Source: an uncultured virus (IMG/VR IMGVR_UViG_3300020042_003594) (taxonomy: Duplodnaviria > Heunggongvirae > Uroviricota > Caudoviricetes). From it: 64,000 nucleotides of DNA. The notes beneath the pieces were generated by a model. It was not told the origin of the DNA. It saw only the letters and a list, made by a program, of their open reading frames with translations, and did not search any database. Below, piece after piece: positions 1,445 to 57,745 of this stretch; the first letter of the stretch is position 1; each line of letters opens with the position of its first letter. The stretch lies in IMG/VR virus record IMGVR_UViG_3300020042_003594; one strand, given 5' to 3'. The translations under genes and the position numbers were made by a program.

Positions 1445-3601
1445 CTATCCAAGGGCAATTGCCATACTGACAGCAGTACCTGCAGAATCTACCTGTAAGT
1501 TTGTTTGGGCAGCAGACACTGTTGATGCACCTGTACCACCATTAGCAATAGCTACAATACCAGATACATTAGTTGCAGTAGCAGCATTACCAGTAGTGTT
1601 TTGATTCCATGTGGGAACAGTACCTGTCAGACCACTATAGTCTACGTTTGTAGCTGTTGCTGCATTACCAGTAGTATTTTGATTCCATGTAGGAACAGCG
1701 CCTGTCAGACCACTATAAGCTACGTTAGTTGCAGTAGCAGCATTGCCTGTGGTATTCTGGTTTAATGTAGGTACATCAGCCACTTGAATAGTGTTCATCA
1801 CTACGTTTGTACCATTACCGCGCAGATATGATCCACTAGTTACTGCACCAGCAAATGTGTTTATAGCCGACTGAGCATTATTTTGACCAGAGCCACCATT
1901 AGCTAAAGGAAGAATTCCATTTACACCAGCAGTCAGTGATACAGTATTCTTTTCCCAAAGACTAGTTGCACTGTTATATACAATCGTCTGACCAGTGGCT
2001 GGAGATTGAGCCGACACATTATGCAACTCGTCCAATTCATAGCCGTTTTGCACCTTCACCAGCAGCTTACCCTGAGTCGGGTGGGCGTGCGCCACAACCG
2101 CCATGTAGACCAAATGCTGCGGCGCGTATGGCTTGGTGGCCGTCAAAGTTCCCGCTGTCGTTGGGCTGAGATAAAGCTGCGCCCCGTCGGTGTACGCTGA
2201 TGTATTAATGTTGGTGACCAAGCCAATAATGGTTACAAAACCATTGGCATTGTTTGCCAGATCGCTGGTTATCAAACCCAATGTTTGGGCTGAAGTAGCA
2301 TCACCCGTTGCCAAAGCTTTGGATACGGTTGGAATTTGGCCTGTAGCACCAGAGATATATACTGCTGTACCTTTAGTTAATGTTGCGCCAGTAGTATTTC
2401 TTACTTGTTCAACTAACACAGACGCAGGAGAGGTTTGAGATACAGCTAAATCAATAGCCGTTCCTGTTGTAGTAACAACAATACTTCCATCTGCAGAAGC
2501 AACAGTCTGTAATGCTGTGTCTGCTTTACCGCCTTGTACAGAGGTAGCATAAGCTGTGCTATCTGTAGTAGCTGCAGTACCTAAACCTAAGTTAGTTCTT
2601 GCGGTAGGAGCGCTTAATAAATCAGATAAGTTATTAGCTGTTGTTAAAAATCCTGTACCCGAAACATAAGCAGCTACCCAAACAGTCCCTGTATACACTT
2701 TCATTATATCATCAACTGAGTTGAAGTATAAAGCGCCTGTTTGTAAAGGGTTACCATCATTATCTACTGTAGGATCAGATGTTTTCTCTCCCAAATATTT
2801 ATCATCAAAGTTATCAAAGGCAGCTAGTGCTTGATCACGAGCAGCTTCAGAAGCAGCCGCAGAAGATGCAGAAGCAGTAGCACTGTTAGCAGAATTAGTT
2901 GCCTGTGTAGTTGCAATACCTGCTTGGGTAGTAGCTATGCCAGCCTGTGTTGTGGCTGTAGCAGCACTTGTTGAAGCGTTAGTAGCTTGCGTAGTAGCAA
3001 TACCCGCTTGAGTAGTTGCTGTTGAGGCACTTGTCCCCGCAGACGTAGCTGATGAGGAAGCATTAGTTGCCTGTGTAGTTGCAATACCTGCTTGGGTAGT
3101 AGCTGTTGAGGCAGAGGTTGAAGCACTAGTCGCTGAGTTTGAAGCATTAGTTGCTTGTGTAGTAGCTATCCCTGCTTGAGTAGTAGCAGTAGAAGCAGAC
3201 GTAGCAGCATTAGTTGCCTGTGTAGTAGCTATGCCAGCCTGTGTAGTTGCTGTAGTGGCTTGTGCAGTAGCTATTCCTGCTTGAGTAGTTGCTATACCAG
3301 CTTGGGTAGTAGCAGTAGCAGCACTTGTTCCAGCAGAGGTAGCTGAAGTTGAAGCGTTAGTAGCTTGGGTAGTCGCAATACCAGCTTGTGTAGTGGCAAT
3401 ACCAGCTTGAGTTGTTGCTGTAGCAGCACTGCCTGAAGCACTAGATGCGCTTGCAGCAGCAGCAGCTGCACTTAATGCAGCCTCAGCAGCTTTTTGTGCT
3501 GCTAGTTGTTGGTAGGATATCGAGTCTACTGTATCTAAATTATCATACTCTCCACCAGAGGCAATATTGCCAGTCATTCCTGGTTTTTGTTCGTAACCCA
3601 T
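1445..3601 (-). CDS. Tail fibre / spike protein with Ala-Thr heptad repeats
   Basis: 718 aa with many ATTQAGI repeats, FDDKYLG..GALYFN motif and three [14 protein letters not shown] repeats. Follows the adaptor gene. Confidence 0.82.
1565..1770 (-). repeat. Three ~75-nt tandem coding repeats ([18 protein letters not shown])
   Basis: Repeat visible in both protein and DNA. Confidence 0.8.
2880..3430 (-). repeat. Degenerate 21-nt (7 aa) tandem repeats, ATTQAGI / ATTQATN
   Basis: Repeated heptads in the fibre protein, suggesting a coiled-coil shaft. Confidence 0.85.
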
Positions 3602-11172: not shown

Positions 11173-12816
11173 TTAAAGCCAAGTACTCTCTACTTGTTGG
11201 AATGACCCCTGCTTTTGTGCAAAGGTTACATTATTCGTTGTTAGTCTGTCACCGTGTGTTCTTATAACTTCAAGAGCAATCGCAAGCGCGATAACTGTGT
11301 CATCGTTGTGTCCCACAATAGCGTTAGTTTTTCCTGTATCATCTGCAACATAATTCATTAACTCCCCAATAATAATTCTGGAAGGGATCCAAACGTCATC
11401 CTGCTCGATAGCATTCTTTAAGAAACCAATAATAGCGGGTTTAGATGCTGAAGTAGTTCTCCAGCCAATCCTGTTACCTTCTTCCTTAGATACATTAGAC
11501 ATCTTTGTTTGATAGTACATGTTAACATACTTCATCTGAGTGAGTCTGTTTAATGTAGCTATACCCATAGAGTTTGACTCTACTGCTAACAAAGCATTGT
11601 TATAGTACCTGCCTAAGTAAAAGAGTAAGTCACCAAACTGGGAAGGATCAATAGTGTTATTTCTGTATACAGCGCATACTTGTCTTGAGGCATTCATAAT
11701 TACAGCAGAAGAATAGTCTTTACCTACTCCTAAAGCTACGTCAGCACCTATAACAAAAGAGTCTTCAAAGGTAGGATACTTAAATATCTCTATAGAGCCT
11801 CTCTGAACATCCTCCATCATGGAAGACTCAAAGTTAAACTCTCTTTTAGCTAATATAGGTTGTGGTATTAATTGACTCAGTTTTTCTAAGTTAAATACAT
11901 TAGAGCCAGAAATAATGAAGGCTTCTTCAGGGGTACAGGGATACTCCTGACGGAACTTATCTACACCACCCTCAGCAATCTTAAGTCTTCTCCAGTATAA
12001 CTGTTCATCATCTAAACTAAATCTGGTTACTAAGATTTCTTCTTCTGGAGATCTTTCAAAGATTGTACCTAAAGATACCTTTCTCCGGTATTCTTTCATT
12101 AAGAACCATGGTACGAAAATAGGTAAGTATTCATTCTCACCATTAACAGCACCCATCCATAATCGGTGCATGGCATTCCCCACACCATTAGCAGTACTCT
12201 CTAAAATAACCTCAGTACCATCGGCCTGAGAGATACCCTGAAATAAACCTGCTAAGATCTTTTCATCATGAGTCCAAAATCCAACCTCGGATAAATGTGC
12301 AATAGTGGGAGTCGTTCCTCTACCAGCCTCTGGAGCACCAGCAGTATATAGTCTGTATCCTGAGTCATTATGTTCAAACATAATCTCTTTGGCATTTGAC
12401 TTCTTAAACTTAGGTCTGAAACTATCAGTCATGTTATCAATAATATTTCTGCTCATTGAAAACAAAGCATCCGATGTAGCAGCATCATGAGCCATAACAA
12501 CAGACTTGTTATAGGCATTATAGTATGACTTCCAGAATACTCTGGCTGTGGTATATGTTGAGAGACCCATCTGTCGGGCTTTCAAAATAATAACCCTTAC
12601 TTTACCTGTCTCTCTTAATTGTTTCTCAATAGCTTCATTAACAATAGTTTGAGCATCATTAAACTCAAAAGGCTTGAATCCTTGAGATGAATCTTTAGGA
12701 AGTATCTTAATCTGTTCTTTGGCAAACAACTCAAAGTTATTTTTATACTCTGAGTTCTTTTGCCTCTTTTGAAGCTCCCTGAGAGCGTCTACTTTTTGTT
12801 TGTTAGTTGTGGTCAT
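11173..12816 (-). CDS. terL: Terminase large subunit
   Basis: Walker A ILKARQMGLST, HLSE, ESTANG coupling motif, nuclease IGADVA..G.DYS and GHNDDTV. Confidence 0.95.
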   Translation of the reverse strand: MTTTNKQKVDALRELQKRQKNSEYKNNFELFAKEQIKILPKDSSQGFKPFEFNDAQTIVNEAIEKQLRETGKVRVIILKARQMGLSTYTTARVFWKSYYNAYNKSVVMAHDAATSDALFSMSRNIIDNMTDSFRPKFKKSNAKEIMFEHNDSGYRLYTAGAPEAGRGTTPTIAHLSEVGFWTHDEKILAGLFQGISQADGTEVILESTANGVGNAMHRLWMGAVNGENEYLPIFVPWFLMKEYRRKVSLGTIFERSPEEEILVTRFSLDDEQLYWRRLKIAEGGVDKFRQEYPCTPEEAFIISGSNVFNLEKLSQLIPQPILAKREFNFESSMMEDVQRGSIEIFKYPTFEDSFVIGADVALGVGKDYSSAVIMNASRQVCAVYRNNTIDPSQFGDLLFYLGRYYNNALLAVESNSMGIATLNRLTQMKYVNMYYQTKMSNVSKEEGNRIGWRTTSASKPAIIGFLKNAIEQDDVWIPSRIIIGELMNYVADDTGKTNAIVGHNDDTVIALAIALEVIRTHGDRLTTNNVTFAQKQGSFQQVESTWL

Positions 12817-12893
12817 TCGTTATGGGACAGTATGTTCCATCCTGTTGTGTCTTAGCACGATATTATTATTTTAATAACGCGTTGGTTTTTTGT

Positions 12894-12906
12894 CTATTAG
12901 GAACCG
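12894..12906 (-). promoter_or_regulatory. Putative phage RNAP promoter (CGGTTCCTAATAG) upstream of terL
   Basis: One of 7 intergenic copies, oriented with the downstream operon. Confidence 0.7.
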
Positions 12907-12916
12907 ACTAATTCTC

Positions 12917-13125
12917 GTGGTAAATAGTATAAGGGTATACTTTGGATTACTTTTATTTGTAGAATATATTGGGATAATTTTTGGGAAAAAGGTTTTTGGG
13001 AAATAGTTTTGAGGGTACCCCTAGTTGCTTTATAGGGAAAAGGTTTAGGGAATTTTTTTATAGAGAGTTTTGTTAGGGTGCGTGTGTCTTTGTGTGTAAA
13101 AGAATCAGGGTGTTTGTTTGGGTTC
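12917..13125. other. Non-coding divergence region with periodic GGG tracts; probable genome terminus or packaging region
   Basis: Strand switch point. C-poor, with repeated TTTGGGAAA/TAGGGAA units and a central GGGTACCC palindrome. Confidence 0.5.
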
Positions 13126-13224
13126 GCTTGCCTCTGTGCTGTGTTCCCCCCTCTTTCCCTCTGGTCGTTGCTGCGTGGCGCTGCTGCTTCGTCCTTTCTT
13201 TGTCTGCGCTGCTTGGAGTCTGTT

Positions 13225-13542
13225 ATGGTTTCTTCTTCTGTTGTTGTGTCGGTTGAGGTGTGCTCGTACTCTGCTGGCTTTGGTGAGACTGTTCGTTTGT
13301 TGTCTCGTTTGTCAGCGACTCCTGTTTCTGTGGGGGTGTGTCCTTACACTGCTGTTGCTTCCGTTAGTGCAGAGCTTTATCGTGCTGCTGTTCCTGTGTG
13401 GCCTGCTATTCGTTCTCTTGCGTGGAGCGATGGTAGTTCTTCGGGAGACGCTGCCGATGTGTTTGTTGCTCGTCTTGACATTAAAACCGGCAGTGCTCGT
13501 TACTTTGCGCTTGGTGCGTTGCTTGAGTCTGTTGGTATTTAA
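13225..13542 (+). CDS. First early gene, adenine-depleted hypothetical protein (105 aa)
   Basis: GGAG RBS at 13215 before ATG. About 10% A by manual count. Confidence 0.6.
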   Translation: MVSSSVVVSVEVCSYSAGFGETVRLLSRLSATPVSVGVCPYTAVASVSAELYRAAVPVWPAIRSLAWSDGSSSGDAADVFVARLDIKTGSARYFALGALLESVGI

Positions 13543-13614
13543 GATCTCTGCCTGAAGGCTTTGGCCTTTGGAGAGCGTTCTTGCTCTGTTACGACATAAC
13601 TCAAGGAGATTACT

Positions 13615-13839
13615 ATGTCTAAGGTCTTTCACATTATAGTAGCATTACTCACATATCAAACAGGTATGTGGCTGTTGAACATCCATGAAGCAGGTAACGG
13701 TGGTTACTTTCACTTTGCTGCTACTATCTTAGTTGGTATGATCTTCTGTGCTCAGATCCATGTCTTAATTGATGAAGCATCTGAGATTGTTAACCTTGAT
13801 AAAGACTCTGAGATTATTGACTTAAACAAGAAAGACTAA
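13615..13839 (+). CDS. Early membrane protein (2 hydrophobic segments)
   Basis: AAGGAG RBS and two hydrophobic stretches. Confidence 0.65.
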   Translation: MSKVFHIIVALLTYQTGMWLLNIHEAGNGGYFHFAATILVGMIFCAQIHVLIDEASEIVNLDKDSEIIDLNKKD

Positions 13840-13949: not shown

Positions 13950-13968
13950 TCACACCCATTCTCTGGGT

Positions 13969-14000
13969 TACAGAGAGACCTCTTGGGGTAAGTACCAAGA
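13969..14000 (+). repeat. 32-nt direct repeat, copy 1 (double-hairpin element)
   Basis: TACAGAGAGACCTCTTGGGGTAAGTACCAAGA, identical at 14382-14413. Confidence 0.9.
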
Positions 14001-14031
14001 AAACATCAACGTTCTTAACTAAGGAAATATC

Positions 14032-14361
14032 ATGGCAAAAGTCTTCACACCATCGTTTAAAGTTGCTACACCAGTAGTCACTAAGTTCTCTACAAACAAT
14101 CCATTCGGGGAAGATCGTAAGAGTCTGCCTGTAACTATCATTGAGTTAACCTTCAATGAAAATACTCGTAGTATCCAAGCTACAGGCTCTGACATGCGTA
14201 TGCGTCAATGCCGTATTGATCGTATGACTGATCAGAAAATGGTAGTAGCATTGACTAAACAACTGCAAAATGCCTACGATGACGGTACTAAGGTATGCTT
14301 TGTTGCAGCTGGTGCTAACGATCCTAATGTGTGGTTCTACACTGTCCTTGATCAGGCATAA
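14032..14361 (+). CDS. Early hypothetical protein
   Basis: 109 aa with TAAGGA RBS. Confidence 0.75.
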   Translation: MAKVFTPSFKVATPVVTKFSTNNPFGEDRKSLPVTIIELTFNENTRSIQATGSDMRMRQCRIDRMTDQKMVVALTKQLQNAYDDGTKVCFVAAGANDPNVWFYTVLDQA

Positions 14362-14381
14362 TTAAAGACCTTTCTCAGGTA

Positions 14382-14413
14382 TACAGAGAGACCTCTTGGG
14401 GTAAGTACCAAGA
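14382..14413 (+). repeat. 32-nt direct repeat, copy 2 (double-hairpin element)
   Basis: Identical to 13969-14000 and intergenic. Confidence 0.9.
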
Positions 14414-14467
14414 TAATCATAGGAATAGCGTTAGCTATTGCTACCTCTATATTAACAAGGAAATACT

Positions 14468-16131: not shown

Positions 16132-16165
16132 AAAGCCAACGCGTCTCATAAATACCGTTTTTAGC

Positions 16166-16178
16166 CGGTACCTAATAG
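16166..16178 (+). promoter_or_regulatory. Putative phage RNAP promoter (CGGTACCTAATAG)
   Basis: Consensus copy, intergenic. Confidence 0.75.
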
Positions 16179-17585: not shown

Positions 17586-17894
17586 ATGTCTGACATACAG
17601 TACATAACTGCATTAATCAAAGACAAACGAGGTAACATCCTCAGCATAGGTAAAAACAACTACATTAAAACACACCCGTATCAAGCTAAATGTGCTAAAG
17701 CTGTAGGTATGCCTGAAAAAATATACCTACATGCCGAAATAGATGCTATCATTAAATGCCATGATATCTCTAAAGCCTACTCGATACATGTATTCAGGCA
17801 AAGTAAATCTAAAGAGTATCTCTATGCTAAACCCTGCCCAGTGTGTCAACAAGCTATCCTTCAAACAAATATCAAGAAAGTACATCATACATGA
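17586..17894 (+). CDS. Cytidine/deoxycytidylate deaminase-like zinc protein
   Basis: HAE...PCPVC deaminase motif. Confidence 0.8.
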   Translation: MSDIQYITALIKDKRGNILSIGKNNYIKTHPYQAKCAKAVGMPEKIYLHAEIDAIIKCHDISKAYSIHVFRQSKSKEYLYAKPCPVCQQAILQTNIKKVHHT

Positions 17895-18678: not shown

Positions 18679-18691
18679 CTATTAGGTACCA
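18679..18691 (-). promoter_or_regulatory. Putative phage RNAP promoter (TGGTACCTAATAG) for the inverted gene
   Basis: Motif copy oriented toward 18223..18624. Confidence 0.72.
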
Positions 18692-18741
18692 TCTGGTACT
18701 TAATTAACTTAAATTAAACTAACGTCCAATAGGAAAATCAA

Positions 18742-22166: not shown

Positions 22167-22384
22167 AATATACCTTTGATCTTAGTGACGATGATCTAGT
22201 TGAAATTATTCTGCAAAGCCTAAAAAAAGATATACGAAATTTTGAAAAAGACTTAAAAGTAATCGAAGAAAGAAACATAGGTTATGTGTTTGAAATGGAT
22301 GCAGAAAGCGATGTAAAAGAAATTACACGACACATTGAAGCACTTAAACTAGTTAAACAATACTACGGTGGTACAAATGACTAA
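22163..22384 (+). CDS. Hypothetical protein
   Basis: ATGA-coupled ORF. Confidence 0.6.
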   Translation: MKYTFDLSDDDLVEIILQSLKKDIRNFEKDLKVIEERNIGYVFEMDAESDVKEITRHIEALKLVKQYYGGTND

Positions 22385-22790
22385 ACAAAGAACTGTGTAT
22401 CTAGCTGGCCCTATGGAGCATGTCTCTGTTGAAGAAGCTGCTGGTTGGCGTACTAAAGCAGAGCTACTATTAAACTGTAATGATGTACAAACACTTAACC
22501 CATGTCGCCGTGTTCATGACTTTGAGCCTCGATACATGAAACGTATCTTCGAGTTAGACCTTCGAGACATCCAAGAGTCAGACATAATCTTGGTTAATCT
22601 AAACAACCCTGAAATAGCCAAGCATGGTACTGCTATGGAAGTGTTCTATGCTTCTTATGTTCTGCGTAAACCTGTTGTAGCATTCAAAGCTGATGCCTCT
22701 AAAATCCATCCGTTCTTTGAGTCATTAGTCACTGAATGGAGATCAGATGTTGTAAAAGCCTGTGATACTATCACTTCAGCCTACCTATAA
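22377..22790 (+). CDS. Nucleoside 2-deoxyribosyltransferase-like / nucleotide N-glycosidase
   Basis: VYLAGPM, DL..I..SD...V, GTAME motifs. Confidence 0.85.
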   Translation: MTKQRTVYLAGPMEHVSVEEAAGWRTKAELLLNCNDVQTLNPCRRVHDFEPRYMKRIFELDLRDIQESDIILVNLNNPEIAKHGTAMEVFYASYVLRKPVVAFKADASKIHPFFESLVTEWRSDVVKACDTITSAYL

Positions 22791-22952
22791 TGACAGCCCT
22801 ACTAATCATCGCCTTAGTGTACCTTCTATGGTACTTCACTTCTTTCCGTAACAACTAAACTATGATAAAAGCAATCTGGATTAGCATCCTATGTACAGCA
22901 GCAGTAGTAGTTATTGCTCAATTCTTTCGTAAACCTAAAGTTAAAATTTAAT

Positions 22953-23216
22953 ATGCCATACATTAAAATAATTGATCGTGATCGCTTAGACTACATTACA
23001 GACGCAGCAAGCACTGTAGGTATCCTAGATGCAGGTGAATTAAACTACCTAATCACCCGTCTCTGTATTACATTTATGAATGATAACGGTAAATGCTACC
23101 AAAACATTAATAATATAGTAGGTGCTCTTGAAGGTGCTAAAATGGAATTCTATCGCCGATATGCTGCGCCCTATGAAGATACTAAAATTATTGAAAATGG
23201 AGATGTTTACCTATGA
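22953..23216 (+). CDS. Conserved phage protein (GELNY...EFYRR...YED.K...NGD)
   Basis: Recognisable small helical phage family, lying among nucleotide-metabolism genes. Confidence 0.7.
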   Translation: MPYIKIIDRDRLDYITDAASTVGILDAGELNYLITRLCITFMNDNGKCYQNINNIVGALEGAKMEFYRRYAAPYEDTKIIENGDVYL

Positions 23217-23683
23217 CTGATTTTTATGATGAACAAACATCAAATATATTCTGGAAAGATACTATGGGACGTGCAGTAAATCGAATGATTGATGAAGATA
23301 CTAACAAACCAGTAGACTCTAACCTAAAAACGTTAGCCGCTATAAATAAACCTCGTCTCTCTGATGTACCACCAGTAGCACTATTCGCTTTAGGTGCTGC
23401 CATGTCAGATGGTAAAGATAAGTATGGTAGATTCAACTGGCGTCAAACAGGAGCAACCTCCAGTGTATTCTATGATGCAATCCAACGTCACCTAGCGCAA
23501 TGGTATGACGGTGAAGACTTTGCTGAAGACAGTAAAGTGCATCACTTAGCACACATCATGGCATCCTGCGCTATCTTGATGGATTGCGAACACCAAGGTA
23601 GTCTAAAAGATGATCGTGATTTTAGCTATGACAACCCACCACTAGCTAAACCTCTATACTGGATTAAACAAGATGAAACCTGA
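23213..23683 (+). CDS. dATP/dGTP diphosphohydrolase domain protein (DUF5664-like)
   Basis: KP.LS.VP, G..KYG..NW, A..RH...W..GED...S..HHLAH...C motifs. Confidence 0.85.
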   Translation: MTDFYDEQTSNIFWKDTMGRAVNRMIDEDTNKPVDSNLKTLAAINKPRLSDVPPVALFALGAAMSDGKDKYGRFNWRQTGATSSVFYDAIQRHLAQWYDGEDFAEDSKVHHLAHIMASCAILMDCEHQGSLKDDRDFSYDNPPLAKPLYWIKQDET

Positions 23684-24906: not shown

Positions 24907-25024
24907 TGCTAGATTATACTACAGTATACTACTTAATCGTAGAAGGTAAAATGTCTCTTAAAGAATTTGATGAATGGCTAGACAAAGAGCTATGTGACGC
25001 TTTTGATGAAGCTCTAAAAATAGC

Positions 25025-25037
25025 CGGTGCCTAATAG
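25025..25037 (+). promoter_or_regulatory. Putative phage RNAP promoter (CGGTGCCTAATAG) upstream of replication genes
   Basis: TAGCCGGTGCCTAATAGAAA matches the 16162 copy at 19 of 20 nt. Confidence 0.75.
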
Positions 25038-25057: not shown

Positions 25058-25201
25058 ATGCTAGTCGATGTCAGTGATACGCAACTAGTGCAAGTAACTT
25101 TGTTCTTTGAGGCACCACAGTCTCATGAACAACAAATAAAGCTTGACTATATCCTCAACAATATATTCGAATTGGAGCAAGACTACCATGAAGACCAATA
25201 A
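25058..25201 (+). CDS. Small hypothetical protein (47 aa)
   Basis: AAAGG RBS. Manual translation MLVDVSDTQL...YHEDQ. Confidence 0.45.
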   Translation: MLVDVSDTQLVQVTLFFEAPQSHEQQIKLDYILNNIFELEQDYHEDQ

Positions 25202-25634
25202 AGATTGGGATGACTTCTATTTAGAATTATGTGAAGTTATAGCTAAACAATCTTATGCAGAGGATAAAAAAGTAGGTGCTTTAATTGTAAAAAATGACAA
25301 CATTATATCGTTCTCTTATAATGGAACACCTAGAAAGACAAACAATGACACACAAAAATGTACAGTATTACATGCTGAAGCGCAAGCCATTGCTAAAGTG
25401 GCTCGCTCAAACCTTTCTACTGAGAATACCACTCTCTATTGTACTCTTTCTCCCTGTATCGATTGTGCTAAGCTTATATACAGCTGCGGCATTAATCGTG
25501 TGGTGTATCGGATGGGATACAAATGCAATAAAGGAATTGATTTCCTCAAACAAAACGGAGTATTTGTAAACGAACAAGTTCACCATGTAGGATTAGTTGA
25601 TCTGGAATATCTAAAGAAAACAGGGCTTATATAG
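25188..25634 (+). CDS. dCMP deaminase
   Basis: KVGA.IV, YNG.P, HAE, TLSPCIDC motifs. Confidence 0.9.
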   Translation: MKTNKDWDDFYLELCEVIAKQSYAEDKKVGALIVKNDNIISFSYNGTPRKTNNDTQKCTVLHAEAQAIAKVARSNLSTENTTLYCTLSPCIDCAKLIYSCGINRVVYRMGYKCNKGIDFLKQNGVFVNEQVHHVGLVDLEYLKKTGLI

Positions 25635-30891: not shown

Positions 30892-33099
30892 ATGAATCCA
30901 CTAAAATATCTTACAGAACGTGTATCAAAAGTTGTCCCCAACTCTGATAAGATTTATAATGAGGGTGCTCGACTTTTAGCACATCATTCAACATGGGAAT
31001 ATGATTTAGAAAGGTTTATCAATGAAGCTTGGGACTCCCTCCTTAAGTATTGCATCCGTAACAAGAATGCTACACACTCTGCATCAGTTAAACTCACCTT
31101 CGCATCTGATCTTATCGGGAAAAGAATTGCAAGAAGTATCGGTGCTGATGAATCAAACGTTAAAACAACCTTGTCTTTGGGAGATCTTCTCCTTGAAACG
31201 TTCCTTCAAGACGGTCTAATAGATATTTTCCGTGAGTATGAAGGTCGTAAAGCTCCGTATCTAATCTCTATAGTTAATATGGATGATTCTATTAAGCCTA
31301 CGCTTATTGGTACTTCATTTGAACCTTTGTTACCTATTGCTGGATTATATAGTCCGTTAACTAAAGAACCTTTTATTAAAGGATGGACTAACAGCAAATT
31401 GTTTCATAGCTACCTAGATAAACCATTTATTAATGCTCTTGAAACTTTAAGACAGCAGCCTTGGCAGCTAAACCATGCTGTAATATCAGCCATGAAAGAA
31501 ACTAAACCAAAACATTTAATGGAATTAGTTGATGAGAATGGTGAGATTCAAGTATACAATATACACCATGAGAATATACATCTCCCAAAGAAACTTAATA
31601 ACTTAGATGGTACTAAGTTCTTAGGTAAAAAAGACCCTAAGTTACAGAGAATGTTAAGTAAATATTTTGAATACAATCAAGTATTAAAGAAGGCTGATAT
31701 GATAGGGTCTAAAACATTCTATCAAGAAGTATCCTGTGACTATCGAGGTAGAGTATACTATGTAGAATCTTTCCTAGAGTTTCAAGGCTCAGACTTAGCT
31801 CGATCTTTATTCCTATTTGCTAATAAGAAGAAGGTTGATGAGCGAGGTTATTATTGGTTGTCAGTTCATACTGCTGCTTGTTATAATATGTCTTATACAC
31901 TTGAAGAGCTTAAAGATATAACCTGGTTGACAACAGACTATATTAAGTATTTAACCTCTGAAGGCTTAGATACTATTTCTGTTGATAAAATGACCCTTGA
32001 TGATCGTGCTTTGTGGGTTAAACATAACCTAGAATTTATTATTAAGTCTGCTCGTACTAAACACATACATCAAGATGCAGAAAAGCCTTATAGCTTTTTA
32101 GCTTGCTGTGTTGAGATAGCATCATACCACAAATGTAAAATCATGAATCAAGATTACATGAGTGGATTCCCTATACCTATTGATGGCTCAAATAACGGAT
32201 GGCAACACCTAGCAGCAATGTCTAAGGACAAACAAGCAGGTGAGTTAGTGTCTCTTGTACCTACACCTATCCAGAAAGACTTCTATGTAGCTGTAGCTAA
32301 AGAACTTATCTCTGTTATGCCTGACTGGTTTGCTGAAAAACAAATGCCTATGAAACATATTCGTAAAGGCATTGCCAAGCGTGGTTCTATGACTCGTGCT
32401 TACTCAGCAGGTAAACAACGTATTGCTAAGAATATGTATGATGACTGCCACGTAGAAGGCTTTACTGTTAAGTATGGCATCACTGAAGAACAATGTACTG
32501 AGTTAGCTGGTAACTTAATTAAAGCAATCAATACTGTTTGTGCTGGCCCACTTAAAACAACTAAGTACCTACAAAAGATTGCTGAACACGAGCTTAATAA
32601 TGGTCGTAATGTATTAAATTGGACAACACCTAGTGGATTCCCTGTAATATATAAAGCTTACTTACAACATGAAAGAAAACAACGTGGGACTATTAAAGGA
32701 ATTAAAGGGAATAAAGATGGTCGCGTCATGCACGTTATACGAGTTGATGTTATTAACAAAGAAACAGGTGAACGGGTACCGTGTAGAAGAAGTTTTGCCT
32801 CGGGTATTAGCCCTAATGTTGTGCATTCCTATGATGCTGCTCATATGGCTAACACTATTATTAGCTTCAATGCTTCTTTTGGTGCCGTACACGACTCCTT
32901 TAGCTCACACGCTTCAGAAGTGGATTTTCTACAAGAAGTAACTAAGATGACTTTCATAGCTCAGTACGATGTAGAAAACTTCTTTAACATCCTTCAAGAA
33001 GCCCTTATGGATAATAAAGAATCATTCACTTTCCAACAGCCAGAATTAGGTAATCTTGACTTATCCGAGATTGCTAATTCAAAATATTTCTTTTGTTAA
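30892..33099 (+). CDS. T7-type single-subunit DNA-directed RNA polymerase (735 aa)
   Basis: DYRGRVY, motif A PIDGSNNGWQH, motif B RKGIAKRGSMTRAY, PNVVHSYDA, motif C VHDSF. Confidence 0.95.
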   Translation: MNPLKYLTERVSKVVPNSDKIYNEGARLLAHHSTWEYDLERFINEAWDSLLKYCIRNKNATHSASVKLTFASDLIGKRIARSIGADESNVKTTLSLGDLLLETFLQDGLIDIFREYEGRKAPYLISIVNMDDSIKPTLIGTSFEPLLPIAGLYSPLTKEPFIKGWTNSKLFHSYLDKPFINALETLRQQPWQLNHAVISAMKETKPKHLMELVDENGEIQVYNIHHENIHLPKKLNNLDGTKFLGKKDPKLQRMLSKYFEYNQVLKKADMIGSKTFYQEVSCDYRGRVYYVESFLEFQGSDLARSLFLFANKKKVDERGYYWLSVHTAACYNMSYTLEELKDITWLTTDYIKYLTSEGLDTISVDKMTLDDRALWVKHNLEFIIKSARTKHIHQDAEKPYSFLACCVEIASYHKCKIMNQDYMSGFPIPIDGSNNGWQHLAAMSKDKQAGELVSLVPTPIQKDFYVAVAKELISVMPDWFAEKQMPMKHIRKGIAKRGSMTRAYSAGKQRIAKNMYDDCHVEGFTVKYGITEEQCTELAGNLIKAINTVCAGPLKTTKYLQKIAEHELNNGRNVLNWTTPSGFPVIYKAYLQHERKQRGTIKGIKGNKDGRVMHVIRVDVINKETGERVPCRRSFASGISPNVVHSYDAAHMANTIISFNASFGAVHDSFSSHASEVDFLQEVTKMTFIAQYDVENFFNILQEALMDNKESFTFQQPELGNLDLSEIANSKYFFC

Positions 33100-33113
33100 T
33101 TAACACTAGAAGA

Positions 33114-33126
33114 CGGTACCTAATAG
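33114..33126 (+). promoter_or_regulatory. Putative phage RNAP promoter (CGGTACCTAATAG) upstream of RNR
   Basis: Consensus copy, intergenic. Confidence 0.75.
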
Positions 33127-35281: not shown

Positions 35282-35358
35282 GCGGCTGTAGCTCAGTTGG
35301 ATAGAGCAACGGTCTTCTACACCGCTTGTCAGGGGTTCGAATCCCTTCTGCCGCACCA
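35282..35358 (+). tRNA. tRNA-Arg (anticodon TCT)
   Basis: Cloverleaf GCGGCTG/CTGCCGC, D arm GCTC..GAGC, anticodon loop CT-TCT-AC, T loop TTCGAAT, encoded CCA. Confidence 0.93.
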
Positions 35359-36744: not shown

Positions 36745-39700
36745 TTAATCTGGAAAAGATTTTTCAAAATTAGATACAAAGTTTTCTGCTCGTTTAATAT
36801 CAGACTTTTCATTAATAGCTTTTGTTTTACTTATGTTACCTCTGTTACCAGTAGCTCCATAAGTCATTTGACCAATGCCATCCTTCTTAGAGGCAGTCAT
36901 TAGCTTAGAGGCAGTATCATTAACCTTGTTAGCAAAATTATTTACCCAAGAGTCAAACCTATTTGAAGGGCCAGACAGCTTAAGCATCTCTTTAGCAATC
37001 ATAGTTAATCTCTTAAACTCACTAGGTGCTACTGCTAAATGTTGCCTGATGTATTCCCCACCCATATTAGGTGTATTAGGAATAGAACCAGGTGCTTTCC
37101 AACCAGCTGCTTCAGCTTCTTTAAGCATTGCATTAATACGTTGTTGATACTTAACCCACTTAACAGGGTTATTATGTGCTCTACTTAAAAACAATTCTTT
37201 ATAAGAACCATTATCTTGTACGCGCTCATACTGCTCATCAAGGTAAGCGCCTAAAGCAGGGTAGTCTCCTTTATCACCAATGCCAACAGGTCTACGGATA
37301 TCCATAACTCTATTGAATTCTTTTTCTTCAGCTTCTTTAATTACTTGGTCAAACTTTTTACCAAACTTAGCAATTTGAGGAATAGCTCCTGGTATAGAGA
37401 TATTGTTATAAGCATTACGATAAATTAAAGAACCACCCGGAGTTGAAATAGATGAGTCATGAACCCACATAACAGGTACTGGAGTAGTTTTATCTTTATT
37501 AACAAATAGAGTAGTACCTTTAACTAAATCACCATCAAGCGACTGAATAGGCATAACAACCATTTGCCTAGATTGACTAGTACCAATAGCATTATTATAG
37601 ATATCATACTTCTTAGTACGCTGATTGTAAATTAGTTGTGAGCCTTTACTAGCTGCTGGATTATAATCCATTGCAGAAGATTCAACTGTAACTTCTTCAC
37701 CCGCGCTATTAATAAAAGTATCTGACTCATAAGCTTTATACTTAACCATAACAGTAGAGCCATCAGGCAGCTTAACAGGTAGCAATTCACCAGTATCATT
37801 TGCTTTATTAACAGGCATAACTTCTACGGGAGTCAGTACATAAGTGTCTCCTGATACACCTTCCATCATAACTGTTGTGTTAAGAATAGAAGTATACCTT
37901 CCAATGTCTTTTAATACTTGAGTTGATTGAGAGTTAATAACTTCTCTTAGAGTACCTTCAAGGGCATCGCTCAATGCAGTAGCAGCTTTATCAAGGTCTC
38001 TTGAGTATGCAGTACTATTTAATAAGTATTGTTGAGTTTCATCAGGATAAACACTGGCTAAAATTTCAACCATCATATCACCAAACATGCTGGCATCTTT
38101 ACCATAAGCATTCTGCATAAGAGGCTTCTTAAAGAAGTCTTTAGACATTTGTGCTTTACCTTGCTTATCTTTAATAGACTTAAAGAAGTTTCTCCATGCA
38201 TCATTTGCATCAGGATTATCTTTAAGATTGTCTTCCAAATTAGCAATCATAGTATTCATAGCGTACTCACGCATGTCATCTAAGTTTGGATTAAACATAC
38301 CTAAACGAATAGCGTTATCAGGGCTACCAAAGAATAAAGCTTGAAGGAAAATACCATTCTGATTACCGTCATCAAAGGCATGATGAGTTAACGCCACATG
38401 TTTTCTTGTTTGTGCAGGATCTAATGATGCTGCTTTAAGATTAAACATATCGTCCCATAGATTCTTAGAACCCATAGACTCACCTTTCTCCATACCAGCT
38501 AGCAGCTCTTGAATATTATCAGGTGCATTAACAGGGTCTGATAAGAACATATTATATTCTTTACCAACTTCAGCTAATTTATTACCAATATCTGGTGTGT
38601 ACATAGCTACAATATTAGCAGGTGACTGGCTAGTAATATCTGGGTTAGTACCGTTAACAGCTGAGTAATAGTTAATAACTGCATTAAGCATAGTGCCAAT
38701 GGCTGCTCTCTCAGAAGGAGATAATTTACTTAATGTATCATGTTGTTGTTCCCCAGACATGCGAAGAATCTTAACCGCTTTTTGCTTAATACTTTCAACC
38801 ATCTTAGGATCAAACAACATATCAGAGGTTACATAATCTTTATTAGCAAACCCGATCATGTCACGAGTACCATTCTTTGAACCCATGTAGTCAACATCAA
38901 AACTATTAGGGAAGAAACGTTGATTAGCTAAACTGTGTACCCACTCTGAGTATCGAATACCGGGAGAGCCTTTAGTATTTGCAACATCAAACTGAAGAGT
39001 CTTAAGTTTATTATTAATAACTTCCACAGCTTGGTATTCTTGTTGGGCTTCAAACTCACGAACATCTTCTGGATTAGAAGCATCAAAATCTTTTTTAGGA
39101 TTTGTTTTAAGTTTAGCTTCAATGTAGTCTTTCTCACTAACTCCATTACGTTTAGCAGCCCAATGATTACTGAATTGGATTTTACCTTCTCTGTTTTTCT
39201 GAAGATACTGAGGATCCATAATCAAACTAAGTTCAATCTCTTTATACTGAACATCTTTAGCCCCAAACATAAAACCAACAGAACCAAGAATATCTTTAGT
39301 TGCTTCAGCAGAAGTAGTAACAAGATCACCCTTCTTAATAGAACGCTTAGTTAGTTGTTGACGATTAGCTGCAAAAGAAGAACCGCTACGACTAGGGGTA
39401 GATGAAGAACGTCTACGGCCATAGTCACCTACTAAAGCTTCAGAAGCTATTTGTAAGTCTTTAGCAATGTTCTTTAAGTCAGGACTCATTTGAACTACGG
39501 GACGATCATTAATATGAAATACTTTAATTGATCCCCTATCAATAGCATCCATTACAGTAGCTTTAGACATCTCATTAATAGCTTTAGGTGAAACCTTTTT
39601 ACCCATGCGGTTTAATCCGTTAGTGGCAAAGTGTTTAACAGAGTTAATATAGTCTAGTAAATAGGTAGCATCATCAATAGTAGCACCAGACCCAACTACA

Positions 39701-40542
39701 ACTTTACCTGTACCTTCTTTTTCACCTTTCTCAACTTTACCTTGAGAAGCGGACTTAGCTAATGCTACACCAAACACTAAACCTAAGTCAGCTAGTTCTT
39801 CAGGAGCAGTAAAACCATCTTCATAAGCTGCTTTTAAACCAGCAGCAATTAAAACAGAGCTACCATCAGCACCTTTCATTTCACTTTTAATTCTTGCATT
39901 AGAAGTAAAGAGTGCATCATTTGTTTGGGAAACAATACTTGCTAATGCAGTAGAAGTCTTATCAGCATAACGATCAATAGCATCTTCATCCATTGATTTG
40001 TTAGCAACCTCTCTTGAGGACGCATTAAACATAGCATCTTGTCTACCAGACAATAATGCTTGGGTAGCAGGAGCAGCAGCCATGAACGGGTCTTGAGCCA
40101 TTCCCTGCATAGACTCCATTGTATTTAATTGAGAAGCTTTTTCCATAGTCTGCTGTGTAGCATAATCTTCTGGAGTAATTTGTCTCATCATTGGTAAACC
40201 AGTTTGAGGGTTAACTCGTGGAGCACCTGTCTCATCTAAGATAGGTTCTTCTACAGGTCTAGCCCCAAATCTAGATCCAGAAGCTAGTGCTACATCTTCA
40301 GCTGTCCTAATAGTAGGTGCTGTAGCAAGCATTTCTTCTGATGGGCCTGTTGGTACAGGTATATCAGTAGGTTGAGGCATATACTGGTCTACAGTAGCCT
40401 GAACTGTTTTACGTGGATCTTCTACAGGTGCAGGTACTTGACCCATCATGCCTGTAGCTTGTGATTCGAGAGCCATAAGTTGATCTAATGAAAGACCAGC
40501 TTTTGGCGCCCCTAAAGGTGCGACTTTAGTTTGAATTGCCAT
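36745..40542 (-). CDS. Divergent single-subunit RNA polymerase, probable virion-encapsidated (ejected) RNAP
   Basis: Motif A FDDGNQNG, motif B KDFFKKPLMQNAYG, IQSLDG and motif C WVHDS, in T7/N4 order. No Cys in 1265 aa. Last gene of the ejection cluster. Confidence 0.8.
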   Translation of the reverse strand: MAIQTKVAPLGAPKAGLSLDQLMALESQATGMMGQVPAPVEDPRKTVQATVDQYMPQPTDIPVPTGPSEEMLATAPTIRTAEDVALASGSRFGARPVEEPILDETGAPRVNPQTGLPMMRQITPEDYATQQTMEKASQLNTMESMQGMAQDPFMAAAPATQALLSGRQDAMFNASSREVANKSMDEDAIDRYADKTSTALASIVSQTNDALFTSNARIKSEMKGADGSSVLIAAGLKAAYEDGFTAPEELADLGLVFGVALAKSASQGKVEKGEKEGTGKVVVGSGATIDDATYLLDYINSVKHFATNGLNRMGKKVSPKAINEMSKATVMDAIDRGSIKVFHINDRPVVQMSPDLKNIAKDLQIASEALVGDYGRRRSSSTPSRSGSSFAANRQQLTKRSIKKGDLVTTSAEATKDILGSVGFMFGAKDVQYKEIELSLIMDPQYLQKNREGKIQFSNHWAAKRNGVSEKDYIEAKLKTNPKKDFDASNPEDVREFEAQQEYQAVEVINNKLKTLQFDVANTKGSPGIRYSEWVHSLANQRFFPNSFDVDYMGSKNGTRDMIGFANKDYVTSDMLFDPKMVESIKQKAVKILRMSGEQQHDTLSKLSPSERAAIGTMLNAVINYYSAVNGTNPDITSQSPANIVAMYTPDIGNKLAEVGKEYNMFLSDPVNAPDNIQELLAGMEKGESMGSKNLWDDMFNLKAASLDPAQTRKHVALTHHAFDDGNQNGIFLQALFFGSPDNAIRLGMFNPNLDDMREYAMNTMIANLEDNLKDNPDANDAWRNFFKSIKDKQGKAQMSKDFFKKPLMQNAYGKDASMFGDMMVEILASVYPDETQQYLLNSTAYSRDLDKAATALSDALEGTLREVINSQSTQVLKDIGRYTSILNTTVMMEGVSGDTYVLTPVEVMPVNKANDTGELLPVKLPDGSTVMVKYKAYESDTFINSAGEEVTVESSAMDYNPAASKGSQLIYNQRTKKYDIYNNAIGTSQSRQMVVMPIQSLDGDLVKGTTLFVNKDKTTPVPVMWVHDSSISTPGGSLIYRNAYNNISIPGAIPQIAKFGKKFDQVIKEAEEKEFNRVMDIRRPVGIGDKGDYPALGAYLDEQYERVQDNGSYKELFLSRAHNNPVKWVKYQQRINAMLKEAEAAGWKAPGSIPNTPNMGGEYIRQHLAVAPSEFKRLTMIAKEMLKLSGPSNRFDSWVNNFANKVNDTASKLMTASKKDGIGQMTYGATGNRGNISKTKAINEKSDIKRAENFVSNFEKSFPD

Positions 40543-40548
40543 TTATAA

Positions 40549-43500
40549 TTACTCCTTTAAATACTCTTTAGCTTCTTTAGCTACTATTGGGAAACTACCT
40601 ACAACAGGAGCTGCTCTAATTAATTGAGCAACACCCTCAGCAGTCTTTCCTTCACTAATTTTATATGCACCTTGAATAGGTTTGTCTGCCCAAGATGCGA
40701 CTGGTGAAATATCTTTCAACGTTTCGTATGACCATTTAGCTGGGTTATCTAACACAGATGGTTTCTTATCTGGATACAATGGCATAACACCATCTACTAA
40801 TCTTTCATATTGACCAAGTAAACCTGAACCATAAATAGTTCTTTGGATATTAGCTACTTTACCTTTAATATAAGGGTTCTCTTCACCATATGATAGCTCA
40901 TCCTTAAGCATATTAGCTAAGATAGAGAACATAATAGCCATAGACACAACAGTAAAAGCTTGGTATCTCATACCAGCACTGCCTTCAAGTACATAATTTC
41001 TATATAGCTTAGGTAATACAGTAGAATGTAGTACAGCCATAAATCGAGTCATAGCAGTAATAATTCTTAGTCTAGGGTCATGATAGTACTTAGGTAAGTT
41101 ATGCGCCTGTGGGTTAGCAATCTTACCATCAATCATATTACCAATAGTTGTTAAGATATTTTCTTGAAGAAATTTAGCTTGGGTGTTAGCTGGATAACCA
41201 TCTTTAGTTAAGTTTTGTTCAGAAAAAAAGTCATAAGGATTATAATTGTTTGATTCAAAGTTATCTAAGATATCAATAACACTTAACACATCCATACCTG
41301 ACTGTTGCAATTCTTTAAGAGCCTGACCTTGTTGGTTATCAAGACTTTGACCTGTTGTTAATGCTTTAACTCTATCTTCTGCAGGAATAGCTCTTAATGA
41401 TTGTAGCTTAGTAACAACTGCATCTGAAGCAAATGATAAAGCAGACATACGTACTGCATCAGTAGTAGCTCTAAGACCAATAACTGCAGCAAACACTTGC
41501 ATTGCTTTACGCATGTTGCTATTAGGTAATTCAAATTTAGCTTGAGTGTTATAGCCACTCTCGTTGTAACCTAATGTTTCAAACAAAGATCGACCAAAAG
41601 CTCTACGATGCAAGTCATTTACTTCTTTAGAGATTCGTTCATATTCTTTGATGTCATCATTAACTTGAGCTTTATCTAAGTCTGCCTGTAGCTTTTCAAT
41701 CTTAGCGTTTATAGCTGCATGTGGGCTATACCTAGTATAAGCAATACCAACGCTAGCAGCTGCAAAAGATGCACCACCATTAAGATCATGACGTAATTCT
41801 TCAGCAAATGTTTTAGCATACAAAGCTAATTGAGCTTTTACTTGATCACCATTAGTTCCAAGAGTAGACATAGCTACCTCTGTCTGAGAGCTAATAGCTG
41901 CTTTACCTAATGAAGCTAACATAGTTAATGTTGTACCCCACCCTAGAATTTTTTCTAGCTTAGGGTAATTAGTTAGCGGGTTATAATTACCTGTTACAAT
42001 ATCATACCAGTCACGAACATTCTTAACTGTGTCCATGTATTGTTGATCACTATCAAACTCATTATTATTTTTTGCTTGTGTAAGTAGTTTTGATAATACT
42101 AATCCATCTTGACCTAAGAATACTTCGTGAGCAATCCTATTAGCAATGTTTTCTTTTAAGTTCTCCATGCTATTAAAGAGGTTAGTCTCAAACACATGAT
42201 TAAGTTTAGGATCAGCAAATACACCATATTGAGACATCCAGTCTCTGGCTGGCTTAGCTTTATCTGGATTACCAGACACAACATTTTCAATTGCTTCTTG
42301 GGCTTGTCTACGATTACTACCATTAGCAACCATTGTAGCAATAACTGCTTCACGGTTACGCATTAGAGTTGCAGGATGAATTGATGCTGACTCAAACAAA
42401 GGGTCAGTAGAATCTAAATCAGAACTAGTAGTGTTAAACCTATTAACTTCTGTTTTCATTTTACTAACAACAGTATCTAAGTTATCTTTCCAGTTTTGTA
42501 ACTCAATATTTTGAGGTGTAGTTTGAGGTAACGTTTGACCTTTAGACCAATAGTTTTGCCAAGACTCTTTAACCATTAAGTTAGCTGTTTTAACATTAGT
42601 ATTTAAATTACTGGCTAACTCTTCGGCGGTATTACCTGACCAACTACCCATTAGTCTTTGTTTAAAACCGGCGTAGTTATCTCCGGGTAAAATACCTTTA
42701 CCACCAATAATAGACTTAAGATAAGCTAGATTAGTTTTAAAAGAGCCATCTTGGTTAACAATAGTTGGGATAGCAGTATCAGATAGTTGCCTTAACAAAC
42801 GACCAGGATCAGTAATAATAGATTTAAAACCATTCCATGCACCTTCTAGAGCAGGTAAAGTAGATAGCTTAGGTGTAGGTACATTAGTAGGTTGTGACTT
42901 AATATCACGAACCATAGATACTGTATTGTTGTAAGCAGTAGGGTCACCCTCTCTTACTCTTAAGCTTTGTTCATTATTAAAAGATTGTTCTTCAGTAAGT
43001 TGATTGTTATAAACTTCTTTAGCATTAGATAAAGACTGCCATTCAGCAGTTGATTTAAGTTGAGATGCACTCTGAAACATACCGCCCATAGTACCACCAC
43101 CAATAGCAGCATCCATAAGGTTCTGATAAAAGTTTCTTTCGTATTGAATATCAGTATCAAATACACCAGTAGTTGCCATCATTTCCAGATACTGTTGAGC
43201 ACTCTCTGTAAGGGCTTCTCCACCGCTAGAAGTAGTTAATTTACCTAAGCCACGTAAGACTGCCTCAGAAGAGGCATACTGTTGTTTAGCTAATGCAGCA
43301 CCTGCCTTAGACATGTCAACTAATTCTTTCTTAGTAGCATTTTCAATAATCTTTAATGCAGCACTATCAGATAAAATTTCACCTGTTTCTTTTAACGCTT
43401 TATCTTTAAGAGCAGCAACTACTTCAGTCCTACCCGAGCTTGTAAGGATATTACCAGTCATCATCATACCATCTAAACCTATTCGGTCTAGTACAGCAGA

Positions 43501-44745: not shown

Positions 44746-44761
44746 AGATTCCTCATATTAA

Positions 44762-54729: not shown

Positions 54730-54742
54730 CTATTAGGTACCG
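54730..54742 (-). promoter_or_regulatory. Putative phage RNAP promoter (CGGTACCTAATAG) heading the phoH-tail-ejection operon
   Basis: Consensus copy in a 22-nt intergenic gap. Confidence 0.75.
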
Positions 54743-54743
54743 A

Positions 54744-57743: not shown

Positions 57744-57745
57744 GT

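Follow-up and report, generated by a model that had tools for sequence, protein, structure and literature searches.

In phage T7 the first gene (0.3/Ocr) lies behind a host-type promoter, hairpins stand between the early genes, and entry of the DNA is slow and driven by transcription; to our knowledge, the composition of that first gene is ordinary. Avoidance of palindromes and restriction sites is a general phenomenon in phage genomes, and engineered counterparts exist in the ACA-less mRNAs used with MazF and the G-less or C-less cassettes used for in vitro transcription. According to the part of a published account that concerns restriction, phage T5 resists type I and type II enzymes only if its first-transferred region is without sites (PMC10644984), and the same part cites work in which sites in a single orientation escape enzymes needing two inverted sites, namely those of type III (Krueger 1995 as cited in PMC10644984). 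Here we analyse a stretch of 64,000 nucleotides (nt) from an uncultured virus of the Caudoviricetes (IMG/VR IMGVR_UViG_3300020042_003594; the window from here on), in which the leader and first gene of the early operon (13108-13542) are nearly devoid of adenine (A). Such an A-poor first unit recurs throughout a widespread set of aquatic phages, among them the cultured marine Roseobacter phage CRP-7, whichever gene fills the slot.

The A-poor unit and the features that bound it are the following.

13088..13107, + strand, promoter-like motif CTTTGTGTGTAAAAGAATCA, a single copy in the window, conserved directly before the zone in relatives
13108..13216, + strand, A-free leader of 109 nt, holding a conserved C-run and a conserved hairpin (13163-13194)
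13215..13218, + strand, Shine-Dalgarno GGAG, with an A-free GGGG in its place in many relatives
13225..13542, + strand, first early gene, 105 amino acids (aa), 10.1% A, codons mostly NNT
13555..13587, + strand, two conserved hairpins closing the A-poor unit (AAGGC/GCCTT, 13555-13568; AGAGC/GCTCT, 13572-13587)
13615..13839, + strand, first gene of normal composition (29.8% A), a small membrane-type protein, with ribosome site AAGGAGAT; the constraint ends here
14032..14361, + strand, early gene with 30% A and a predicted OB fold, with A-depleted paralogues inside the zone of many relatives

A first-pass annotation of the window had reported a long run without A, and the run was found as described: it follows the final A of CTTTGTGTGTAAAAGAATCA, the last one preceding the zone, and covers the 109 nt of 13108-13216, the next longest A-free runs in the window being of 34, 33 and 32 nt. 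At 30.2% A, a run of this length would arise by chance somewhere in the window with a probability of about 2e-13. A scan of base composition also set the start of the lowest-A 300-nt stretch of the whole window at 13108 (4.7% A vs. a mean of 30.2%). The first A's after the run are at 13217, in the ribosome-binding GGAG, and at 13225, in the ATG. The open reading frame (ORF) that follows has 32 A in 318 nt, only 5 of them at third codon positions, and its protein has no Asn, Gln or His and a single Lys; before the stop codon, AA occurs at one place only (AAAA, 13483-13486). These figures agree with those first reported.

Relatives were retrieved by their terminase protein (80 IMG/VR loci, 72-94% identity), and in 74 of them 300 nt or more of sequence precede that gene. 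To delimit a zone, we took the first stretch of 30 nt or more without A whose start lies 80-450 nt from the terminase, and prolonged it for as long as the following 60 nt had no more than 5 A. An A-depleted zone was present at the same place in 68 of the 74 relatives, as well as in CRP-7, and the bias is therefore shared at the equivalent position. Zone lengths range from 31 to 1089 nt (median 249), with at least 100 nt in 57 relatives and at least 400 nt in 30, and the longest uninterrupted A-free run reaches 259 nt. The pooled zones (22,386 nt) consist of 1.6% A, 28.0% C, 29.5% G and 40.9% T; T, with 41% overall, fills 59% of the third codon positions, and the remaining A's are mainly unavoidable ones, at starts and stops and in some codons for Asp, His and Tyr. 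The zone follows immediately on the conserved promoter-like motif and extends as far as the conserved hairpins, of which there are two or three, co-varying, followed by CTCAAGGAGATTAATATG and by the conserved small membrane-type protein (19-33% A; 44 members of the 13615-13839 family in relatives). The return to normal composition after the hairpins is abrupt.

Six relatives had no zone. Three of these are contigs ending within 326-553 nt. In L047 the upstream sequence is quite different and the conserved control-region motifs are absent, and L048 and L049 keep the promoter motif and the leader, but with A's in them, and have a first gene of ordinary composition. A more distant phage, MW202692 (terminase 32% identical), showed no base-free tract.

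In CRP-7 the zone is 599 nt long with 7 A, lies on the + strand of the record near its right end, and is preceded by a C-free tract. The GenBank annotation places gp72 (L001 141-836; record 57271-57966) on the opposite, T-free strand. We take this gene call to be spurious, because a T-free strand cannot hold a stop codon. The actual A-poor first gene lies on the strand opposite to gp72, with its ATG near L001 position 499, and its product has the C-terminus ...GKWFCAVSPA; the C-terminal motifs, compared by eye only, are like those of a family found in the zones of the freshwater relatives. When one of the freshwater proteins of this family was used as query, 16 unnamed protein clusters were found. 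The long N-terminal extensions of the ORF 13078-13542 and of two homologues of its protein, P0002 and P0003, appear to have the same cause, namely the mishandling of A-free tracts by gene callers.

Homologues of the window's first-gene protein are 56-69% identical to it. DNA encoding the closest of them (P0002-P0004) was not found in the scanned viral, metagenome and genome contigs, but P0002 and P0003 probably have A-free leaders too, since their N-terminal extensions consist of residues encodable by A-free codons. Two viral contigs carry homologues of the gene at 17.5-18.8% A, and the metagenome loci L003 and L004 are weak matches only, L003 being of high GC content and unrelated on inspection.

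A zone of this kind might come from mutation bias, by transcription-linked deamination of the exposed strand, or from an assembly error in sequence of low complexity. The zone is rich in T and G, as is a much-transcribed sense strand, but its C is up rather than down (28% vs. about 20% in the window), which misfits deamination. The sharp edges of the zone coincide with functional signals, and A is retained exactly where it is needed, in starts, stops and a few codons. An independent freshwater metagenome contig spans 12788-14215 with 23 differing letters and 6 gaps, so the tract is not an assembly error; the artefact considered in the first-pass annotation is excluded by this contig, by the relatives with a zone, which amount to dozens of independent assemblies, and by the cultured isolate. 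Mutation bias and artefact, taken together, are thus extremely improbable, and were rejected on the raised C, the sharp edges, the retained A's and the independent assemblies. A 156-nt contig from an RNA-seq library also matches 13237-13381 exactly, but the library covers the terminase gene as well, DNA carry-over is possible, and the match does not count as proof of transcription.

Selection on the DNA or RNA rather than on the protein had been proposed for the window's first gene, and this core of the original interpretation stood, whereas the explanation by ultraviolet (UV) damage is weak and that by demand for adenosine triphosphate (ATP) was rejected. Such selection is strongly supported by the non-homologous genes, the recoded paralogues and the A-avoiding divergence found in the zones. 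Different relatives hold different genes in the A-poor slot. A second in-zone family, with 2.3-7.8% A, is homologous to normal early genes (24-30% A) of the same phages, including 14032-14361 (blastp with composition correction, E = 8e-17, 39.5% identity, supported by the alignment); a third family of 212-216 aa has about 1% A, and tiny in-zone ORFs have A only in their ATG and TGA. As one family occurs both A-depleted (2-8% A) and normal (24-30% A), it is the nucleic acid, and not its protein product, that is under selection. The second family's genes in the zone do code for protein, since their differences are distributed over codon positions 3, 1 and 2 in decreasing order (1889 / 1021 / 635), with 1370 synonymous and 1124 non-synonymous codon differences. 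Their proteins are made of 19% Val, 18% Ala, 18% Ser and 10% Arg, with almost no Lys, Asn, Ile, Thr, Gln or His, whereas in the normal paralogues Thr, Asn, Lys and Ile stand at 6-10% each.

In 139 pairs of related zones, 12.0% of the aligned sites differed vs. 15.0% in the flanking genes, and those involving A made up 5.9% of the differences in the zones vs. 54.5% of those in the flanks; as the pairs are not independent, this comparison is descriptive. The slot can also change its content, as in one relative (metagenome run X4, contig 17) that keeps the leader and the hairpins and has 195 unrelated letters in place of 13236-13570, the exchange falling at ORF boundaries. Altogether, the data point to a strong pressure on the first DNA or RNA exposed in the cell.

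The position of the zone can be read from the layout of the genome, which is that of a lytic podovirus-type phage encoding its own T7-type RNA polymerase.

11173-12816, − strand, terminase, with portal and capsid genes on the same strand
12894..12909, − strand, phage-RNA-polymerase-type promoter AGTCGGTTCCTAATAG, facing the terminase and late operon, conserved in relatives
12951..13080, + strand, putative untranscribed spacer with two C-free tracts (12951-13017 and 13029-13080) containing spaced G-runs
30892-33099, + strand, T7-type single-subunit RNA polymerase gene (PF00940, E = 3.9e-58)
12894-12909(−), 16163-16178(+), 18679-18694(−), 25022-25037(+), 33111-33126(+) and 54730-54745(−), copies of AGnCGGTnCCTAATAG

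The gene blocks diverge at 12817-13224, with the late genes running leftward from the terminase and the early genes rightward. Besides the RNA polymerase, the + strand carries DNA polymerase, primase-helicase and ribonucleotide reductase, and tail and lysis genes and three giant ORFs occupy the − strand at 36.7-64 kb. CRP-7 is the closest cultured relative (terminase identity 57%) and has the same overall layout. The 16-nt motif AGnCGGTnCCTAATAG has 6 copies in the window vs. 0.31 expected, each oriented as the neighbouring genes; the copies are likely promoters of the phage polymerase, a role that we assume from their likeness to T7-type promoters. The first + strand copy, at 16163, is downstream of the A-poor ORF, and promoter-like motifs downstream of an early unit, in a phage with its own RNA polymerase gene, are a feature shared with T7-type early regions. 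The description of the ORF as the first early gene fits, as it lies behind the sole copy of CTTTGTGTGTAAAAGAATCA and upstream of the first phage-polymerase promoter. No match to the sigma-70 consensus was found before the zone, and it is conservation that suggests a promoter, and a start of transcription, at CTTTGTGTGTAAAAGAATCA.

An alignment of 22 control regions showed a conserved order of blocks: the late promoter, a GGGGTACCCC palindrome in a C-free spacer, CTTTGTGTGTG(T)nAAAAGAATCA, the leader and TTTGG(A/G)G-N6-ATG. The A's stop after ...CTTTGTGTGTG(T)nAAAAGAATCA, and the leader is then partly conserved, with GGGTTCGCCCC, the C-run and CGTGGCGCTGC. Searched as DNA against a phage collection, the region of the tract gave no match, and no long repeats were found within the window.

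The C-free tracts of the spacer had not been noticed in the first-pass annotation. In the window they are broken up by a conserved palindrome, GGGTACCC (13013-13020), and many relatives have a C-free run of 35-126 nt in the same spacer, that of CRP-7 being of 63 nt (L001 733-795). The spacer of L065, L073, L076 and L084 shows spaced G-runs or tandem units of about 14 nt around the GGGGTACCCC palindrome, e.g. TAGAGAGTGTTTTAA repeats in L076 and L084. It is a second exclusion of one base, on the strand of the early genes, adjoining the A-free one and lying between the divergent promoters.

Among the causes considered, we tentatively put first, at less than an even chance, that the first-expressed cassette is invisible to host defences that read DNA sites, a 'defence-proof boot cassette'. 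Evasion of A/T-directed defences had already been suggested for the window and is adopted here as the leading reading; that the exclusion of A is itself a restriction dodge is something we infer, and for this the cassette would have to enter, or be put to use, ahead of all other parts of the genome. The cassette would be the first DNA used, perhaps the first to enter the cell, it would probably encode the first counter-measures of the phage, and it would be written so that site-reading host systems find no site. An A-free strand excludes from the duplex every palindrome with an A/T pair and all sites that need A on both strands (type I and most type II sites), and asymmetric sites containing A cannot occur in both orientations, as type III enzymes require. 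The only short palindromes left are those of G and C alone, which would have been purged separately, and the cassette would in this way remain whole and open to expression while the cell still lacks phage proteins.

The frequencies of words were assayed in 48 distinct zones (18,073 nt) against an order-2 Markov expectation, for A-free 4-mers with an expected count of at least 15.

CCGG, observed 7, expected 75.1
GGCC, observed 10, expected 57.4
CGCG, observed 13, expected 44.1
GCGC, observed 104, expected 54.4
GCCG (control), observed 66, expected 62.7
CGGC (control), observed 74, expected 71.1

CCGG, GGCC and CGCG were the three most depleted words tested (3- to 10-fold), and were also the lowest in 17 dissimilar representative zones (5 vs. 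25.2, 6 vs. 14.3 and 7 vs. 16.6 expected); a random ranking would place the lowest three of 81 words entirely within the four GC palindromes with a probability of about 5e-5. The two controls, words of like composition that are not palindromic, were about as frequent as expected. Depletion was detected as well for CGTCG (2 vs. 34.9 expected), CGGCG (2 vs. 16.0) and CCTGG (5 vs. 24.1). Over whole genomes, 4-bp palindromes are mildly avoided, with a median ratio of observed to expected counts (O/E) of 0.76-0.83 vs. 1.00 for other words. These phages are therefore under real pressure of the restriction type, to which the zone conforms no less strictly than other parts of the genome. The constraint depends on the lineage, from none (L048/L049) up to 1.1 kb, and this variation, like the exact swap of the cassette, fits an arms race with the host.

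Several observations weigh against a cassette shaped by DNA-site defences. The contigs of five near-complete relatives are classed as linear without repeats at their ends, and their break points are inconsistent. The terminase shows a distant likeness to T4-type enzymes (PMC6918029), which could mean headful packaging without a fixed leading end. The flanking DNA keeps palindromes, with a conserved GGTACC in the spacer, AGATCT just past the stop codon, and AATT and TATA near the promoter. GCGC is enriched instead of avoided, being part of conserved leader motifs. Much of the avoidance of GC palindromes extends over the genome, and the flanks avoid words too (O/E of 0.45 for GGCC, 0.57 for CGCG, 0.30 for CCWGG, 0.42 for CGWCG and 0.18 for GGWCC), and GGWCC is less avoided within the zone (0.61) than in them. 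Past the first kilobase, the avoidance of palindromes shows no gradient along the early region, the window's own ORF retains ten 4-bp palindromes, and in the CRP-7 zone the GC palindromes are not clearly depleted (2 vs. 3.9, 2 vs. 3.2 and 0 vs. 1.7). The first-gene products show no recognisable anti-restriction fold or family. Finally, it is in every case the sense strand that is affected, and the zone begins where transcription probably starts; neither is predicted by selection on DNA sites, which covers strand and start only through the limits of coding and the promoter's own need for A.

Strand and start are what would be expected if the relevant molecule were the mRNA, the immediate-early transcript being nearly free of A to escape an agent that attacks or binds adenines in RNA. 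Toxin endoribonucleases with A in their motif, A-specific accessory RNases, RNA adenosine deaminases, ADP-ribosyltransferases or a phage-borne nuclease would be candidates, and synthesis of the first proteins could then go ahead regardless of the condition of the cell. In every zone-bearing relative and in CRP-7 the A-poor strand is the sense strand, and the limits of the zone are those of one RNA, from the promoter-like motif to hairpins with compensatory changes. The lone A's belong to starts and stops and to a small number of codons for Asp, His and Tyr, and even the ribosome site is often GGGG and not GGAG. The leader hairpin has compensatory changes in 8 of its 10 pairs in an alignment of 27 leaders, and its conservation implies that the leader works as RNA, although as a whole the leader is not unusually stable compared to shuffled sequence (z = -0.02) and Rfam covariance models gave no match up to E = 1 in 12700-13700. 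Compensatory changes were also present in the stems of the closing hairpins (alignment of 38 distinct sequences), with no T-run after them; these hairpins are candidate sites of RNA processing or stabilisation. The sense strand, the start, the hairpin end and the GGGG sites are thus predicted more directly by an attack on RNA than by one on DNA sites. Nevertheless, no agent is known that hits every A, and a sequence-specific RNase would clear only its own motif; RNases triggered by infection would act after early expression, the first mRNA being the least in need; and, as the mRNAs of the host contain A, a constitutive A-directed attack is hard to imagine. On balance, an escape at the level of mRNA is possible but rather unlikely.

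The same strand and boundaries are predicted if it is the template that must be free of thymine, in such a way that damage or marking of T cannot halt transcription of the first genes. UV dimers, a glycosylase or ADP-ribosyltransferase with T or modified T/U as its target, or a T modification of the phage misread by the host polymerase could be responsible, and a template of this kind could never give opposed nicks. The pile-up of T on the non-template strand described above fits, as do the nucleotide-pool genes of the phage and the fact that no thymidylate synthase was seen in the window. On the other hand, no thymine-modifying enzyme was found among the window's proteins, related phages without a zone exist, and the template is of ordinary T-rich composition both in the 3 kb of the operon that follow, ahead of the first promoter of phage type, and in all the DNA up to the polymerase gene (30.9 kb), which must be read before the phage polymerase exists. 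We consider a thymine-free template unlikely as the cause, and its weakest form is the one put forward in the first-pass annotation, i.e. resistance to UV: the same polymerase reads the rest of the operon from a template as rich in T as usual, T makes up 41% of the A-poor strand itself, and sense GG (template CC) is barely avoided (O/E 0.84). Shielding 0.1-1 kb of a genome of about 60 kb would also bring little benefit, and a stochastic lesion could hardly pay for the recoding of whole proteins.

A low demand for ATP at entry, the other early suggestion, would be served by an RNA that needs almost no ATP as substrate, either to spare ATP or to allow transcription when it is scarce. It was rejected: every cassette has some A, since the ATG, the stop codon and several codons still need it (32 A in the window's ORF), and the downstream genes have 30% A; translation needs ATP anyway, and the saving would be trivial. 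We regard such an economy as scarcely credible.

It is possible, if doubtful, that restriction enzymes are not the cause at all and that the unit is a natural 'three-letter' cassette, driven by an adenine- or thymine-directed attack on the nascent mRNA or the template in the first minute of infection. Its proteins would be built from little more than ten amino acids (Val, Ala, Ser, Arg, Gly, Leu, Pro, Phe, Cys and Trp, with few Asp, Glu and Tyr). The probability left over goes to a cause not yet thought of.

Regarding the products of the early genes, an alpha/beta fold was predicted for the first-gene protein (predicted local distance difference test, pLDDT, 76), its model had no match in the PDB at E<=0.001, and its net charge is about -1. 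The model of the 14032-14361 product (pLDDT 79) matched the B subunits of AB5 toxins (template modelling score, TM, 0.58; E = 1e-4), a predicted likeness of fold only, and its comparison with a protein atlas gave nothing usable. Neither protein had a match in Pfam, PHROG or NCBIfam. The OB-fold gene is flanked on either side by a 52-nt repeat with a hairpin (13956-14006 and 14369-14420, 88% identical), which could be a processing signal shared between intergenic regions or one at which gene cassettes recombine; a spike of depth over the copy at 13956-14006 was seen in one metagenome run.

Elsewhere in the window, the nucleotide-pool genes (22368-23683, 17586-17894 and 25143-25634) belong to a set comprising a nucleoside 2-deoxyribosyltransferase-like protein, DUF6899, a protein with a dATP/dGTP diphosphohydrolase N-terminal domain (PF18909) and two deaminase-family proteins. 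They may hint at altered DNA bases; PurZ, like thymidylate synthase, was not seen in the window. A tRNA-Arg gene (anticodon TCT) lies at 35282-35358 (+), the same tRNA being reported for CRP-7, and tandem repeats of about 80 nt are found on the − strand at 2891-3430 and 1565-1775, inside the tail-fibre gene 1445-3601. Three consecutive giant late ORFs of 1265, 1398 and 1037 aa (36745-47875, −) recur as the same trio in CRP-7 (gp33-35). Considered as virion polymerases, they had no Pfam or PHROG family match, and the middle one (40549-44745), the only one compared with PDB sequences, had no match there; they may be ejection or internal virion proteins.

A search of the full-text literature returned no relevant description of an adenine-free phage cassette and no natural counterpart of base-free templates, and the paper on CRP-7 is silent about the tract wherever its text turns to that phage (PMC6918029). 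If true, this would be a new type of signal, a position-specific ban on one nucleotide that forces working proteins into a reduced amino-acid alphabet and whose conservation spans phages of lakes and a marine roseophage in culture. An A-free zone would mark the immediate-early cassette of uncultured phages by sequence alone, and flag their first, probably counter-defence, genes, in tracts where gene callers fail, as the GenBank annotation of CRP-7 shows. The pairs of recoded paralogues are natural experiments on the tolerance of a fold to the loss of Lys, Asn, Ile, Thr, Gln, His and Met, and as CRP-7 and its host, an RCA Roseobacter, are in culture, the threat to the first phage DNA or RNA is directly testable.

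Compared to the known systems, the phage resembles T7 in being a podovirus with its own single-subunit RNA polymerase, in having a first gene behind a putative host-type promoter and hairpins bounding the early genes, and in the logic of strand-biased sites, which is common to both. It differs in its gene order, which is not T7-like, and in a first protein without Ocr-like acidity or fold, in which family and fold searches revealed neither an Ocr-like DNA mimic nor a known anti-restriction protein. As in the general avoidance of palindromes, the effect is mild genome-wide, and strong for CCGG, GGCC and CGCG inside the zone, but the known cases remove words and not a base, and are not confined to one transcription unit. 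The engineered templates likewise omit a letter or a word so that an enzyme cannot act, but are laboratory designs. A further parallel is the first-step-transfer (pre-early) region of T5 and BF23, where the gene block used first must itself be without host sites while protection has not yet been made. For T5, entry in two steps, a signal that stops injection and the location of this region at a genome end are documented. The T5 region is without particular sites and ordinary in composition, whereas here one base is nearly excluded from one strand and the proteins are recoded.

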